Source: Eledone cirrhosa (taxonomy: Eukaryota). Taken from it: DNA of 64,000 nt. Positions within the stretch are counted from its first letter, which is position 1. Every line of letters begins with the position of its first letter. Of this stretch, positions 6,544 to 62,516 are shown piece after piece. The notes under the pieces were generated by a model. That model saw only the letters and a program-made list of their open reading frames with translations. It made no database searches and had not been told where the DNA came from. The position numbers and the translations under genes are program-made. The stretch spans positions 148,800,001 through 148,864,000 of the forward strand of contig OZ024740.1 of the NCBI GenBank assembly GCA_964016885.1. Reading direction: 5' to 3'.

Positions 6544-8047
<1,504 letters not shown>

Positions 8048-13760: not shown

Positions 13761-14345
13761 TCTTGCTCTGAGGCTCTGTGTAATTGCCTAAATAAGGAAG
13801 CATGCCCACTTGAAAACAAATGCCTCACAAATGATATCGTATACAAATGCGATGTCATCTCAGGCACCGATAATTGCAAAAAAACTTACATCGGCATGAC
13901 CTCCAACAATTTTAAGCCCCGTTGGTATGCTCATACCCACTCCTTCAGAAGACCGGACAAATCAAACCAGACAACACTCGCCTCCTATGTTTGGGACCTC
14001 AAAAGGAACTCCACCCCTTTCACGCTTAAATGGAAAATACTGCAGAAAGCGCGCTCTTACAACGGAGGACAAAAGGGCTGCGACCTTTGTATCTCAGAGA
14101 GCTACGAAATTTTACCGCCAAGGGCCCGTAACTGAACAAACTCTCTGAACACTGCCCGAACTGCATGCACAAGAACTTTGCAACTTTCAAACACTTTAAG
14201 CCAGTGTTAAAGCCCGATGGCTAAAAACGACGTCCCCCTGTTAGCCCCTATATCTCCTTCCCACCCTACCCCCACCCCTCCTCAACCTGAAATACGGCCA
14301 CTATCGTTATGTGAATAGCTCTTACTATCTGCATTTTCTGCCCGT
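13761..14345 (+). mobile_element. Naiad-type PLE 3' fragment (GIY-YIG endonuclease)
   Basis: [55 protein letters not shown], with a frameshift before LNKLSEHCPNCMH. Confidence 0.88.
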
Positions 14346-18948: not shown

Positions 18949-19540
18949 TCTTGCTCTGAGGCTCTGTGTAATTGCCTAAATAAGGAAGCATGCCCACTTA
19001 AAAACAAATGCCTCACAAATGATATCGTATACAAATGCGATGTCATCTCAGGCACCGATAATTGCAAAAAAACTTACATCGGCATGACCTCCAACAATTT
19101 TAAGCCCCGTTGGTATGCCCATACCCACTCCTTCAGAAGACCGGACAAATCAAACCAGACAACACTCGCCTCCTATGTTTGGGACCTCAAAAGGAACTCC
19201 ACCCCTTTCACGCTTAAATGGAAAATACTGCAGAAAGCGCGCTCTTACAACGGAGGACAAAAGGGCTGCGACCTTTGTATCTCAGAGAGCTACGAAATTT
19301 TACCGCCAAGGGCCCGTAACTGAACAAACTCTCTGAACACTGCCCGAACTGCATGCACAAGAACTTTGCAACTTTCAAACACTTTAAGCCAGTGTTAAAG
19401 CCCGATGGCTAAAAAACGACGTCCCCCTGTTAGCCCCTATATCTCCTTCCCACCCTACCCCCACCCCTCCTCAACCTGAAATACGGCCACTATGGTTATG
19501 TGAATAGCTCTTACTATCTGCATTTTCTGCCCGTAGAGAT
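18949..19540 (+). mobile_element. Naiad-type PLE GIY-YIG fragment (duplicate of 13761-14345)
   Basis: Near-identical sequence and ORFs. Confidence 0.88.
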
Positions 19541-30655: not shown

Positions 30656-33600
30656 TTTGTTATCCCGTATACGTAGCTCCCACCTGGTTGAGCAACACCA
30701 TTAGCGCACGGCAACAACACGGAAAATCACCGTATAGGAATATCACTGAAAAACATACCTATACCTACAAATAAGGACTATACACTAGGCTTGATTTCAT
30801 CCGTAGGGTCCGATGGAAGGCTTATCACTTCGACAAAAGACCAGCTATTAATACAAGAGAATTTTCTAAGGAAAATTACGGATTCACATCCTGCAAAAAC
30901 CCTCCAAACCACCCCGCACTCGATTAACTTCGAGCTGGACCTTATGAATATGATAAGTGGAACTAAATTTAAAAAAAGAACACACCACAACAAATTACAA
31001 AATGACATCAATACACTACTAAAAAAACTAAAAGACACCAACGGTATCATAGTAAAGGCAGACAAAACATCAAACGTATATTCTATGGACCTTAACACGT
31101 ACAATAATTTCATTCAGCGTGAACTACACAAAAAATACAAAAAAACAAATGAATCCACACTCACCAGCATTAACGTGGAGGGCCTTAGGATAGTAAATAA
31201 ACTCGGAATATCCGATAGAACCGAGCCTCTAAGCCCATGCAATCCCACATTTAACCTTAAGGATCACAAAATTAATTTTGAAACAAATCCTACTATCAGA
31301 TTAATATGCCCATCTAAGTCGGATATAGGTAAAATTAGCAAGAATATTCTAGATAGGGTAATCGCACAAATAAAGGGAAAACTAGAAATCAATTTATGGG
31401 GTAACACTAACGAGGCGATTGAATGGTTCAATAAAATAAGAAATAAAGAGACATGTAACTTCATACAATTCGATATAAACGATTACTATGCGTCCATATC
31501 CCCAGCCACCCTAGATACAGCGCTTATATTTGCCCAAAATAACTCCGATCTTACCCCTGATGTAATTGAAATAATAATTGTTTCTATTTTAGGCACAAGG
31601 CCAGCAATTAACCACTTTATGTTATCGACCCCGTAAGGATGAAAGGCAAAGTCAACCTCGACGGGATTTGAACTCAGATCGTAAAGGGACGTAACTATGC
31701 TGGACAGCATGGCGTCCGACCCTCTACCGATACTGCCAATCCACCGCCTTGAATTTGAAATAATAATAGCGGCTAGAATGACTATCATAAAATTTGAAAA
31801 TAGCTACTGGGTAAGAAAAGATAGGATAAACAGCTTCGATATGACAATGGGATCAAATGATTCAGCGCAAATCACTGACGTCGTGGGGCTATTTATAGCA
31901 CACAACCTACATAAAGAATTCAGTAACATCCAAGGAGGGATTTATAGGGATGACACGCTCCTTATAGCTAGGAACTTAAACAACCAGAGCATGGAAAGAT
32001 TAAGAAAAAACATTAGAACATTCTTCAAAAAACTAGGCCTAAGTATTACCTACGAACTGAATCATAAAAAGGTAAACTTTCTAGATGTGACTCTAAATCT
32101 AAATACGGGATTAATAGAACCCTTCCACAAAAATAATGAGAATCTGGCCTACATTAGTTATAATTCAAACCACCCCAGATCCATAATCAGATCCATAGTA
32201 CGTAGTATATCCCTTAGAATATCCCGCTTATCCTCAAATCTACAAATGTTTAATGAACATGCTAACTATTATAACGCGGCATTACATAGGGCCGGACACA
32301 AAGAAAAGCTGCAGTTTATAACGGATAAAGACAACTCAAACAAACCTACTAAAACTGACACCAACCGCTCACACAAAAATAGAGGTAACAGGACTAGACA
32401 TCGAGGTAGGCACGTAGCACCTAGAGTAAGTGGTCCAAACACCAATAATGTAAACCCTGGAAACAATAGAAGAATTAGAGAAAGAAAATACCTGTGGTTC
32501 AATCCAATCTTCAACTCCTCTGTAAAAACTAGACTGCCGTCTACGTTCTTTAAACTAATAGATAAACACTTCATAAAATCCTCAATAGAAAAACTATGAA
32601 ACTCTCATACTCTACGGCTGCAAATATAGAATCCCACATACGCAAGATTAACCACAAAAATACCTCTAGGGAAACCGCCCCACCTATGCGCAACATAGCA
32701 CCAAATTCTAAACATAAACACATCACAGTATCACAACCGCAAACGCATACAAGCACGCAGCAGCAAAACCTCAACGGGCACGAATCACAACTCACTTATA
32801 GCAGTGTACAAAACAGCAGTGTGGAAGCTGCACAGAATAACACCTCAAACTGCAACTGTCAACTACCAGATAGATGCCTATTGGCGAACAGATGCCTTGA
32901 TTCGAGCCTAGTGTACATGTGTACGGTGAACTCGGGCAACTCCACTTGGCATTACATTGGATCCACCGCTGGTACTTTTAAAAAAAGATGGTATGTGCAC
33001 AGACACTCGATGAACAACCGTGCACTTATAGGTTCTACAACTCTCGCCAAAAAGATCTGGGAACTTAAGGACAATAACATCAACTACAATATCAACTGGT
33101 CGAGGTTGTCGGCCGCAAGAGCATATAGCACCGGTATGTCCTATTGTAGGCTCTGCGATCTTGAATTACTGTATATCCTTAGGAATGAAAAAAGGCTATT
33201 CAACAAGATAGAAAGATCAATTTTCTGCAGACACAGGATCGCCACTAAATTCACAAGATTTAAGCCACCGTGAATCGAACCAACATAACTTAGCATTCAA
33301 CATATGAAATCCACACTATTACACAGACCACCACAGAACTATAATATTCATTACGCAGATTTTAGCCTCCTTAATTCTATACCACAGTAATGTCTGCAAA
33401 TATCTTATCAACCCATAAATATATCTCTTCTCAGCTGCTGTCAACACAACTTCCTCACCTTTGATTCTCAACAGATGAACCTAAATCCAAGTACATTATC
33501 AGAATACTACCACAGTAAAACATCACCTTCATCCTGTTATAATTGTAGTCAGCATGTTTTCTCTCTATATATATATATATACTGCTCCCTTAACCTCTGT

Positions 33601-52917: not shown

Positions 52918-55130
52918 GTGCTCCTTTTTGTAGAGCATCTCACCTTATTTGCCATAATGTTGGAGAACCAGCCCTTACCCATGTCTCTCAAATGTATCCC
53001 CTTACCCAGCAGAAAAACCTACCTGAAACTGCTTATAGACGCTACTAACTCGTTTATACGGAGAGTCAGATGGAAGGTCTACCACCTGGATAAGAACACC
53101 CGCAACCTTCCTGAATCTAAAGAGAGGTATGGCTTCAAAACATACCGAAACCCACCGCACAACACCTTACTAGACTCTTTTGAGAAGGACCTGCTGAAAG
53201 TGATTAAAAACGTTAAGTTCAGAAAGAAACACCGATGCATCAATCCATTCTTAACGTCCCTTGATACACTAATAACTAAGATCAAGAATGACCTGCACCT
53301 CTTCGTCACCTCTGTCAAAACCAAGAAGCTGTACAAGATGGACGCGAGCAAGTATAAAAAATTCATTTAAAAGGAACTACACAAAGACTACAAAAAGACA
53401 CCCTTTAGTACCCTAAATGACATAAATAGAGTAGGGAAGGATATAGTTACCAGCTTAGAAATAGAAAAGTACACTAACCCGTACGTCCCTCTGACGCCTA
53501 GATTCTCTCTTAAGGATCACAAATGTAACTTTAATGAAAACCCCTCTATTAGACTAATATGCCCCTCTACATCTGATATAGGTAAGATTAGTAAAGTGAT
53601 CCTCAACAGAGTACTACTGGAGCTTAATAGAAAGGCTAAGGTCTGCCTCTGGGGCAACACCGACCAGGTCTAAATTGGTTCACCAAGTTGCCGGATAAAG
53701 CGACCCTGAAGTTCATCCAGTTTGACATAGATAGTTACTACGCCTCTATCTCCCCCATACTCTTAAATAAGGCACTTATATTAGCAAAATCTAACACTAG
53801 CCTCACTAAAAAAGAAATAGACATAATTCTAGCGGCGCGTAGAACCATTATCCAGTTCGAAGGCTCCCACTGGACCAGAACCAACCGTCCTGATAACTTC
53901 GATGTCACGATGGGGTCCAGTGACTCAGCGCAAGCAACTGATCTGGTCGGGATATACCTCCTCCATAAGCTTAGGGACAAGATACCGGCCTTACAAGGAG
54001 GTGTATATAGGGACGACGCCGTTTACCGTTAGGAACCATAGCCCTCGTAGGATAGAGAACCTTAACAAACATATACACATGTTCTTCAAGTCATACGGCC
54101 TATACGTAACTATGGACCTCAACCACCAGGTTGTCAACTTCCTGGACGTGACCCTGGAGTTGAGTACGGGCCTATACAAGCCATACCATAAGCCTTGGAG
54201 AGTGCCTTTCTTATATTAATTATGCCGCCAACCACCCTAAGCAGACTCTCAACTCCATAGTCTATAGCATCTCACATAAAATCTCGAGGTTCTCTGCCAA
54301 TGAGGATATCTTTAACCAAGCGGCAGATTACTACAATAGGGCCTTGATAAGCGCCGGCTTTAACCGAGGAATTTCCTACATCCCTAACGCTAGCTCTAGA
54401 AACCACCCCTCATAAAACGAACGTTATAGTAAGCTATACCTATAACCGATCACGCAGCGACTTCGTAGGAGACGGATATAATAGTATAGATAATCGCACT
54501 AAGGAACACGCCCGCAACGTTTATTACTCTAGCGATAGTATTGGTAACTTACCACACAATAAAGATCACGAACCGGTGACAGTAACCACTGTAGCCTACT
54601 CGAATTATTCCCCTACTACAAAATCAACAAAGGTGATGGCCTACTACCAACGCCTTACAACCAACATTTTCCTGTACATAAACATGGAAGAAGGAAGAAG
54701 AGTGCACCCAAGCATAAAATGAAAGGGGCACGTAACGGGCTACAGCGCATTAACATACATAAGAACGGTCACCTTGATGGAACCACCCGTAGCAAACATA
54801 CAAGGACACGTAATCGCCACGGTAACGTCCTATGGCTCCACCCCACCCCCCTACTTTCGGAATGTGGCCTCCAACATACCCCGGATATTCTTCGAAGCCT
54901 TAGAGAAGAACTTCCCGCCCAACTATAGGTATAGAAAAATTCTTAATAGGAACAATATAAAAATATCCTTCTCTACAACTCCTAACCTAGCAGACATCAT
55001 AGGAACAACGAACCACAGTAAGATCACCAAGACACAGAACCTTAGCACAGACGCACCTACACCTGACAATAACTATATCGGCCTTAACAACTCACTAGCA
55101 GCATTCAATAGTGCTGGCAACGACCTCTAA
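52918..55130 (+). mobile_element. Degenerate Naiad-type PLE (N-terminus + RT; endonuclease missing)
   Basis: SLKCIPLP..RRVRWK, LKDHKCNF..RLICPS, QFDIDSYY, FDVTMGSSDSA, YRDD, VNFLDVT, ILNRNNIKISFS. Contains stops and frameshifts. Confidence 0.9.
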
Positions 55131-57767: not shown

Positions 57768-57798
<31 letters not shown>

Positions 57799-57815
57799 GG
57801 AACCAGTAGGACCCC

Positions 57816-57852
57816 AAAAATATGGAACGCTTCACGAATTTGCGTGTCATCC
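57816..57852 (-). pseudogene. U6: U6 snRNA 3'-terminal 37 nt (inverted copy)
   Basis: Minus strand GGATGACACGCAAATTCGTGAAGCGTTCCATATTTTT is the canonical metazoan U6 3' end. Confidence 0.95.
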
Positions 57853-57880
57853 ATGGATGTCACGCAAATTCGTGAAGCAT

Positions 57881-57917
57881 GGATGACACGCAAATTCGTG
57901 AAGCGTTCCATATTTCT
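57881..57917 (+). pseudogene. U6: U6 snRNA 3'-terminal 37 nt fused to a PLE-like repeat (57918-58015)
   Basis: GGATGACACGCAAATTCGTGAAGCGTTCCATATTTCT|GGGGTC. A further partial copy lies at 57855-57878. Confidence 0.95.
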
Positions 57918-58079
57918 GGGGTCCTACTGGTTCCTATTACCCACTCTACTACCTCAAGTATTGAGTACTTTGGTGCGTTATGGTCCACCTGGTTCCTTAC
58001 CACATTTCCTTCGTTATATATATATATATATATATATACAAATATATATATATATATATATACAAATATATATATATAT

Positions 58080-58160
<81 letters not shown>

Positions 58161-59543: not shown

Positions 59544-60644
59544 TTATGTATACTTTAATTCCTCAGGACCTTCATCATCATCATCAACACTCATTAACAC
59601 CGCACGCCACAACCCAGACTCATCCAAATCTCTCTCTTATATATAGTCACACATTTCAACACAACCTGATCTCAGTTTGACAATCGCCACAGACAGACGA
59701 ATGGGAGAAAGTTCTCCAGCCCAAGTTAACCAGGAATCTCTAAAATTCTTCCCACCGAAGTTAACAAAGAACTTACTGGATCTACCAACTCATAATATTA
59801 TATTATTATATTATAACATTAAATCATAACATTTTTTAACACTACAAGTGAAGTCATTCTTTTCCTTTTTTTCAAATATATATATCTACAGATACATACT
59901 CATACACACATCTACATGTTTATATACATACACATACTCACATGTACATTCCTAGATATGTTTGCTTGTATATTTACACATATTTCTACATGTACAGACA
60001 GAACAGAGATCATTCAATAAAAACTCTAACTGCATATATCACCAAACATTACGACACCTATCAGAAAATGAAGAAAAAAAACAAGAGAATGCGAAATAAC
60101 CGATAGACCACATGCTGAGTAGCCATAGCCCAGTCAGAAACTAGAAAATTCTTAAAGATTACAATAACCAATCAGAAAACTAATACATATACTACTAAAA
60201 CCTAACATAGAGAAAATCCATATGCCGAACTACTTCACTATGGGATGGATGTGCATGTCTACCGGCATATCAAATGACTGCATAACTGCACCAATGATTG
60301 CGTAAGAATCTGATAAAGTCTCATGAATAACCATGTTACAGAAATATGTATAATGCAATAAAAAATTATGGTGATTTAACCTAGCAAATATTTTTCATCA
60401 TTTCTAATGCAAGCTTGGTATAAAATTTATACTTTTATTCTGTAAATTTCAGAAAATCATTAAGGCATATTCCAAGAGAAGAAACAAAATTTATAATAAT
60501 TGATGATATATATATATATATATATCCAAAATTAAGATAAATTAAATGAATTTAATCCAAATCGAAATTGTGGGTGTCATGCCATAACGGCATGCGCCAT
60601 ATCGCCTGGAAATATATAGGATATATAATATATATATATATAAT

Positions 60645-60783: not shown

Positions 60784-61560
60784 GCGGATAAGCAACAGAT
60801 TGCAGCAAGGGTAGCGACAGACATTCTAGCACGGTGGAATACCAAAGAGTACTCAACGAAAATGGCTACCCTACTTATCTCATTAAACACAAAAATGCCA
60901 AAGCAACAGCACGTAAAAGAACAAGGACAAGTGTCCTTAAGGATGACATATGCTACCTAAAGCTTCACATTTTAATGCCACCAGACAAGCAATTCGTAAG
61001 GAAGGACTGAATATACGGCTGGCACACTCGGGACCTTCATTGAAAGACTGCTTCACAGACACCGCCCCACATACATCGATATACACAGACTTTTCAATTG
61101 TCCCGTCAACAACGCATACTTATGCACGAAAGCATATGTGGTCTATAAGATAACGTGTAAAACGTGTAGCTCCACATTCATCGGAAGTACTATAAGATGA
61201 ATACCCATACGAATCAAGAAACACGTGACAATCAGAGCCTCCTCCGTTAAAAACATTTTGACAGATGTCGCAGCCAACACATTGAGGTCACCTTAGAAAC
61301 GACTTAAAGGAATATCGGAAATGTATAGATTAAAGAAGCCATTTTCATCACCCGAATAATACAGAGATAAAAAATAGGTCAGAAATGCACGATGCAGAAT
61401 GGTTACTGAACGGATTCCGCGGATGCGCATGCGTTTTGCAAGCACAGAACAGTTCGGGAAGAAAACTTTCCTGTACATAGGAAATCATAAGAGGTTTTGA
61501 AACGTCGCATTCTTAACAAGTTTGAGGCTTTGAATCATTTTGTTTGGGTGTGGAATGGTG
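60784..61560 (+). mobile_element. Degenerate PLE 3' fragment
   Basis: ..VLNENGYP.. and VVYKITCKTCSSTFIGSTIR*IPIRIKKH (GIY-YIG). Confidence 0.75.
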
Positions 61561-61684
61561 TTTCTACGAAATGCGTAATGATTGACTCTTTGTGTTATTG
61601 AAAGTGGCTAAGAGCATTGCAGGTTGTTACGATGGTCTTTCTTCGTGGCGATAGTGTGATATATATATATATATATATATATAA

Positions 61685-61868
61685 AGAAGGAAGTGTGGTA
61701 AGGAACCAGGTGGACGATAACGCACCAGAATACTCAATACTTAGGGTTGTAGAGTGGGTAATAGGAAAATGTTCAAGACCCCGACGGCAGAGCTCAAGCC
61801 GTTTCGACGGCTAAATAGCCGCCGAAACGGCTTGAGCTCTGCCGTCGGGGTCTTGAACATTTCCCTAT
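61685..61868 (-). repeat. PLE-like terminal repeat with hammerhead 3' half and 53-bp fold-back
   Basis: Arms 61761-61813/61816-61868. GAAA-CGGC(TTGAGCTCT)GCCG-TC^GGGGTC. Body homologous to 57918-58015. Confidence 0.8.
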
Positions 61869-62329: not shown

Positions 62330-62516
62330 ATGGAAGAGGCTCAAACTCAAGAAACTGTTAAATATGACTCTCGAATACGCAAAGCTAATCTTTCTACTGG
62401 AGACGATAAGGAAGATCTCCGTTACGGCTTTGGATGCTTTCGACCAATATGGTTGCAAATGTTCAATAATCCTAAGATTGTTCTTGTTATCCTGTCTTAT
62501 GCCGCATTCGTTCAAG
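62330..62516 (+). CDS. First coding exon of a solute carrier organic anion transporter (SLCO/OATP, 4A1-like)
   Basis: Polypyrimidine acceptor ..TTTTAACAG (62325), ATG at 62330, donor CAAG|GTATGC (phase 1). Peptide YGFGCFRPIWLQMFNNPKIVLVILSYAAFVQG matches the OATP N-terminal/TM1 pattern. Confidence 0.85.

Follow-up and report, generated by a model that had tools for sequence, protein, structure and literature searches.

Recurrent joins of U6 and U6atac snRNA 3' ends to Penelope-type tails at predicted hammerhead cleavage sites in the genome of Eledone cirrhosa

The window analysed here, a stretch of 64,000 nucleotides from Eledone cirrhosa (G000:C1:148800001-148864000; genome 3.0 Gb), contains between two TA arrays a fold-back in which the 3' end of U6 snRNA is joined to a Penelope-type tail, an arrangement that can be read directly. 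The mirror arm, on the minus strand, consists of tail positions +1 to +19 past the predicted hammerhead cut (57797..57815), which abut the left TA array, and of the last 37 nt of U6 including its five T (57816..57852), identical by eye to genomic U6 genes at 37/37 positions. At the centre of the fold-back a 26-nt piece of U6 is duplicated on the plus strand (57854..57879; 24/26 identical to 57880-57905), likely through a slip of the reverse transcriptase. The main arm follows on the plus strand with the same 37 nt of U6 (57881..57917; 36/37 by eye), whose five-position T tract carries a single T>C at 57916. Rfam matches to U6 in the two arms (57816-57857, minus, E 0.0015; 57876-57917, plus, E 0.007) are weak because the U6 piece is short, both lying under the gathering score, and a scan of the whole 64-kb window gave nothing above that score. 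U6 then runs into a 98-nt tail (57918..58015, plus strand) with no extra or missing bases at the junction (57917..57918), which coincides with the cut predicted from the position of the hammerhead motif in full copies of the partner element, here called family A. By sequence comparison, the tail belongs to the pseudo-LTR (pLTR) of that element and comprises the 3' strand of helix I and the region with both apparent reverse-transcription start sites; beyond it lies a TA microsatellite, the right portion of the target array (58016..58158). The abutment of the 37-nt U6 end on the tail had been described in an earlier note on this DNA, together with a sister copy of the tail, and direct reading bears out both. 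The sister is a family A fold-back on the minus strand without U6 and with the hammerhead 3' half only (61684..61867), which reads GAAA box, helix III, GUC and homologous tail in that order, the predicted cut lying between 61783 and 61782.

The U6-tail feature is real and the pattern goes beyond chance. The tail at 57918-58015 is 97/98 identical to the pLTR of a full element in locus L089, and at least 36 further genomic copies are 100% identical to it. The family A junction pattern had four matches genome-wide, representing three loci that each differ in tail variant and U6 length, and the reversed-pattern control had none. The suggestion that the tail might simply be the downstream flank of a genuine U6 gene was rejected, as the 12 best U6 gene loci listed show a run of 7 to 11 T followed by an AT-rich flank and never this tail, genes overall carrying 6 to 11 T. 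More generally, a U6 gene or DNA-level U6 retrocopy may have come to lie beside the tail by chance, or the assembly may be at fault; the locus is indeed a palindrome within TA arrays, and the junction was read from the assembly. However, promoter and U6 5' part are both absent, genuine U6 genes are flanked differently, the 5' portion of the ribozyme is lacking, which fits a cut RNA and would not be expected of DNA inserted into the element, the arms differ at one base, and 29 loci on many contigs follow the same rule, which leaves this origin scarcely credible. Elsewhere in the window, 62330-62516 is an exon-like stretch relative to which the U6-tail feature would sit upstream or in an early intron; we take its translation to resemble the start of an organic anion transporter, and Pfam returned no match to it.

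A 20-nt anchor in the family A tail has 19,267 matches, the pattern sampling about three quarters of copies. The full element was taken from a tandem array with a period of 3.54 kb (L089) and carries an ORF of 768 aa in which RWR, DKT, CxCX5C, a C-terminal GIY-YIG-like segment without CCHH, CxxC and CxH were recognised by eye. Copies are inserted in (TA)n and occur in tandem and inverted order with pLTRs. Set against the published description, these motifs fit a Hydra-clade Penelope-like element (Craig et al., 2021; PMC8557442), for which the available text gives RWx, DKT, CxCX5C, a GIY-YIG-like C-terminus, CxxC, CxH, TA targeting, tandem and inverted copies and a pLTR hammerhead. Family A differs in its length of 3.54 kb, the described elements being generally under 3 kb, and in its U3:A8 core and long loop II; the same text mentions no snRNA chimeras. 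The earlier note had proposed a Penelope-like element or a retrozyme as partner, of which the former holds, the tail being part of the pLTR of an autonomous element, while a non-LTR retrozyme, with short non-coding tandem units bearing one hammerhead each, was rejected in view of the 3.54-kb unit and its 768-aa ORF. Animal non-LTR retrozymes are nevertheless alike in that their type I hammerhead ends are ligated by RtcB in vitro, according to the portions available (PMC7229834; 10.64898/2026.07.22.740005), and unlike in that family A is coding and autonomous and is joined to another RNA and not to its own other end. The window also contains decayed sequences related to the family A protein, at 34-49% identity, in 13779-14114, 18967-19302, 30728-33267 and 52948-55025, and a decayed Penelope-type fragment at 60800-61660 includes a GIY-YIG-like stretch recognised by eye (61099-61197); Pfam returned no match to the 768-aa ORF or to this stretch.

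Full family A copies show, in order, helix I, UUGAGAA, helix II with a long loop, GAAA, helix III, GUC and the tail, and the predicted cut of this complete motif falls at the join, so that GGGGTC is, as had been claimed, the first sequence past the predicted hammerhead cut; a family with an incomplete motif, or one cut elsewhere, is not what was found. The upstream core is another matter, since CUGANGA had been expected (as GACCCC-CTGANGA) and the actual UUGAGAA is a U3:A8 variant with a long loop II. CUGANGA does occur upstream of the family A GAAA box in 49 matches, rejected on inspection as chance joins or fold-back products and not the family core. The family A core agrees with the YUGANRA and GAAA boxes, with a 3:8 pair (U3:A8) and with an NUH triplet (GUC), and between copies position 7 is G or A while positions 3 and 8 are constant. 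Both the unconstrained lowest-energy fold and the centroid fold form a type I three-way junction in which the core remains unpaired; the fold energy is not more stable than that of shuffled sequences (z -0.32), and Rfam hammerhead models had no match in L089 7050-7400 at E up to 10. Taken together, the boxes and the folds indicate that the family A pLTR holds a complete type I hammerhead motif with a predictable cut site. Hammerheads of Penelope-like elements have been described as type I pLTR motifs with a minimal or palindromic helix III, as here, and the U3-A8 core variant has previously been reported from Schistosoma, so far as the accessible text goes (Cervera and de la Pena, 2014; PMC4209133).

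The ends of family A copies point to where reverse transcription may begin. In DNA reads, mapped only onto the family A pLTR, joins to TA pile up at about +19 and about +98 (+19/20 and +98/99), the former being the second commonest TA join of the family (place 7199 of L089, 2907 reads), and from this analysis we infer that +19 and +98 are the reverse-transcription start sites. At the other end, 17 of 30 unselected copies (L112-L141) start at -35 to -45 from the cut, inside loop II, three start at -1 to +1 and none extends past -45; the depth of public DNA runs on the pLTR falls about twentyfold at the same -35 to -45 zone, one run being of RAD type, in which the abrupt end seen at 7252 reflects cutting by a restriction enzyme. 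This start (L089 7259-7263, loop II) lies at a motif that we presume, by likeness, to be initiator-like. If it were the transcription start, such RNAs would be without the ribozyme 5' half and would not cut themselves alone. Starts at the cut are common as well. Of 1060 listed family A copies with a non-family base at cut -3, the first 100 were judged by eye and about half of these truly start there; among the first 100 copies of family G, about 17 do. At G000:C1:98560523 an internal stretch of the family A ORF directly abuts the tail at the predicted cut, possibly through another ligation or an internal deletion.

The count of independent joins at the same nucleotide, which the earlier note had called for, was made with a pattern that required exactly five T after the U6 3' end and tolerated CpG decay, which had 66 matches at 63 loci; for some of the loci the partner was traced through local BLAST and searches of the genome, most SINE-type partners being classed from the listed letters. 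Penelope-type tails are the partner at 23/63 loci, with 17 joins exactly at the cut in ten families (A 2, B 3, C 3, D 1, E 1, F 2, G 2, H 1, I 1, J 1), five probable ones in diverged relatives (L097, L099, L100, L104, L174) and one off by one, at -1 (L176); no U6 at another position of a Penelope-type tail was identified among the 63. A further 35 loci join pieces that we take to be SINEs or LINEs, at scattered positions that include SINE heads and SINE or LINE 3' tails (e.g., L086, L087, L088, L108, L077, L080), and the remaining five have other or unclassified partners (among them L084, L098, L107 and L109). Two of the partners traced proved not to lie at a hammerhead cut, that of L078 being a LINE piece and that of L102 a degenerate TA run. 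Outside the census, exact joins are found at L036 (family A, one substitution in the tract) and L075 (family D, seven-position tract), and a probable one at L076 (D-like). U6atac had 15 matches, three of them joined at cuts (L166, family A; L165, family G; L156, family K); at L161 a 3'-truncated copy is joined inside the family G tail, and of the others two are gene-like. The partners of the remainder are other repeats, in several cases SINE or LINE pieces, or simple repeats. In all, 29 loci comprise 22 exact joins in 11 families, U6atac included, six probable joins and one off by one. Both arms cross the junction at the main locus and at least at five others (L072, L075, L093, L095 and L165). 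The U6/U6atac chimeras of family A number four among roughly 25,000 tails. Families G and J adjoin Penelope reverse-transcriptase ORFs, which from their motifs we take to be Neptune-like, and the assignment of families B to F, H, I and K to Penelope is by TA targeting, fold-backs and hammerhead only.

Positions 3 and 8 of the core are paired in the representatives of all 11 families (U:A in seven, C:G in three, U:G in one), in a scan that tolerated a C:A mismatch at 3:8 but demanded the rest of the box. Seven families use the U3:A8 core (L089 minus 2600-2690; L005, L069, L070, L146, L151, L047), long loop II inserts are present in families A and H, and family G has a long helix III insert. Standard descriptors likely miss such U3:A8 cores and long inserts, as well as the GCAA that replaces GAAA in family D. 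Family G had at first seemed ribozyme-free, an impression rejected on finding a U3:A8 core with the long helix III insert 93 nt upstream of the join; a copy of its pLTR including the hammerhead region lies in the window at 59690-59870. The lowest-energy fold is not a hammerhead for most families besides A, and in examined copies of D, E, G, I, J and K helix I has only two to three contiguous pairs. These thin helices, the GCAA of family D and a cut predicted from sequence alone would all suit a hot spot of another cause, such as a nuclease site, a start site or a structural stop, with the hammerhead motif incidental. However, the 11 families have unrelated tails and are all joined at the nucleotide past an NUH triplet, and the 3:8 pair is kept in every one of them; a hot spot of that kind is accordingly very unlikely, and cutting by the hammerhead in the germ line, which a ligation and a template jump would need alike, is in our judgement very likely.

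The mechanism that best explains the joins, and that we hold to be probable, is cleavage by the ribozyme, RtcB-type ligation of the product to U6 or U6atac bearing a cyclic phosphate, and subsequent retrotransposition. The hammerhead would act on a transcript holding both of its halves, whether by read-through of a full pLTR or with the 5' half supplied elsewhere, and cleavage in germ cells would leave a 5'-OH on the downstream RNA. An RtcB-type ligase could then link mature U6 or U6atac, through its 2',3'-cyclic phosphate, to this 5'-OH. As the downstream piece keeps the +19 and +98 start sites, the chimera would be copyable, and the enzyme of the element may copy it from +98 and +19 into a TA array off both target strands, which would yield two arms that both cross the junction. 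RtcB does join U6 with a cyclic phosphate to a ribozyme-made 5'-OH in vitro, U6 and U6atac being the snRNAs known to end in this way (Moldovan et al., 2019; PMC6789731), and it joins hammerhead-cut retrozyme ends (PMC7229834), as the available parts of these reports describe. Alternatively, the ribozyme cuts and no ligation follows, the reverse transcriptase running off the 5'-OH end and jumping onto a free U6 or U6atac 3' end. Run-off at the cut is evidently common, given the many copies that start there, and U6 is joined to SINE heads and to scattered LINE positions as well. Further, at L242 a 5'-truncated U2 copy lies within a Penelope-type fold-back, its join being about 20 nt upstream from a hammerhead core, which shows that the capture of snRNAs by these enzymes is not confined to the cut. 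However, the joins are seamless, with a five-position T tract in 21/22 exact cases, whereas U6-free copies that start at the cut often have one to four extra bases; the only snRNAs seen at cuts are U6 and U6atac, which end in a cyclic phosphate according to the accessible text of PMC6789731; and both arms cross the junction at several loci, which would need two jumps or a snap-back copy. We therefore regard a template jump as unlikely to account for the joins at cuts, although SINE heads are unlikely to start with a 5'-OH, and template switching probably operates in this genome as a second route. The claim of the earlier note that U6 was joined to a ribozyme-cut RNA is supported, and of the two routes that it offered, ligation and jump, the controls lean toward ligation.

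Among these controls, family A has three U6 joins at the cut and none in the upstream start zone (Fisher p 0.011; 0.003 with U6atac), a comparison that separates the two models poorly since ends at -35 to -45 may be capped, blocking jump and ligation alike; a search for U6 joins in the 1-30 nt that precede the GAAA box region of family A, where most copies begin, had no match genome-wide. A five-position T tract is present in 11/12 hammerhead joins vs 13/35 joins to other repeats (p 0.002; first 100 of 122 matches), genes, TA-only and unassigned rows being left out and the difference being confounded by partners that start with T. All 34 full 3' ends of U5 are genes, the five dispersed pieces examined are 3'-truncated and none of the five is at a hammerhead cut, and neither is any of the four non-gene U2 3' ends, although both RNAs are weak controls, having structured 3' ends that are seldom retroposed at all. 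U6 was the only small RNA recognised by eye at the family A cut among the first 100 of 1060 matches; the small-RNA searches covered U6, U6atac, U2 and U5.

The closest known system is that of the RtcB-ligated U6/LINE-1 and U6atac/LINE-1 chimeras, which share with the present ones, in the parts of the report available, a sense U6 3' end with about five T, a partner RNA with its own reverse-transcription start site and the occurrence of U6atac (Moldovan et al., 2019; PMC6789731). The main locus likewise has a complete U6 3' end with about four to six T in sense to its partner, which is not a variably 5'-truncated LINE-1. Whereas the 5'-OH there comes from an unidentified nuclease and the join in L1 is variable, the partner here is Penelope-type and is joined at one set position, that of the predicted hammerhead cut; the chimeras here also have no poly(A) tail or target duplication, with TA arrays and fold-back arms instead. 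For hammerheads of Penelope-like elements, ligation of compatible ends has been proposed as self-circularisation, not as joining to a host snRNA, with in vivo evidence stated to be absent (PMC4209133, available text). In vitro the anole Poseidon element has two internal start sites downstream of the hammerhead, which the +19 and +98 sites of family A match, and both target strands are cut and extended, as proposed here (Frangieh et al., 2024; PMC11167929). According to the accessible text, its insertion in vitro did not require cleavage, uncut RNA was its main template and no RNA reads ended at the cut, whereas the present chimeras speak for cut RNA as the template in a minority of cases. The U6 chimera is most likely a rare by-product and not a required step for the element.

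The in vivo activity of the weak hammerheads in animal Penelope-like elements has been an open question, to judge by the parts seen of PMC4209133 and PMC11167929. The 22 exact joins in 11 families and two clades, Hydra-like for A and, as judged from motifs, Neptune-like beside G and J, are likely a heritable record of such cutting. If this is true, U6 ligation chimeras would extend beyond mammalian LINE-1, and the 5'-OH, whose source is unknown for L1, would here have a defined origin. U6 joins at Penelope-type hammerhead cuts were not found in print in a literature search that took in few subscription papers and no supplements; the available portions of PMC11838501 mention neither ribozymes nor Penelope, and those of PMC13247085 do not mention ribozymes. 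U6 ligation-type chimeras as such are known, and what appears to be new is a ribozyme-defined join that recurs in 11 families and extends to U6atac. We incline, with some reserve, to a wider reading in which Penelope-type hammerheads, including those whose cores or long inserts escape descriptors, cut in the germ line, their 5'-OH products would be routine substrates for trans-ligation to U6 and U6atac, and the chimeras may serve in any genome as a natural nucleotide-level tag of in vivo cuts, also for motifs that no model detects. What follows U6 and five T in a genome would then be a simple screen to locate ribozyme cuts.

Some further features of U6 in this genome were seen alongside the census. 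A short tail element is joined to U6 within a few bases of its usual start at more than a dozen loci. Tandem gene arrays of U6, U5 and U2 lie at G000:C19:31.78-31.84 Mb, C9:32.79-32.83 Mb and C3:307.35-307.45 Mb, respectively, and in many of the chimeras the U6 part is of the variant found in the C19 array.
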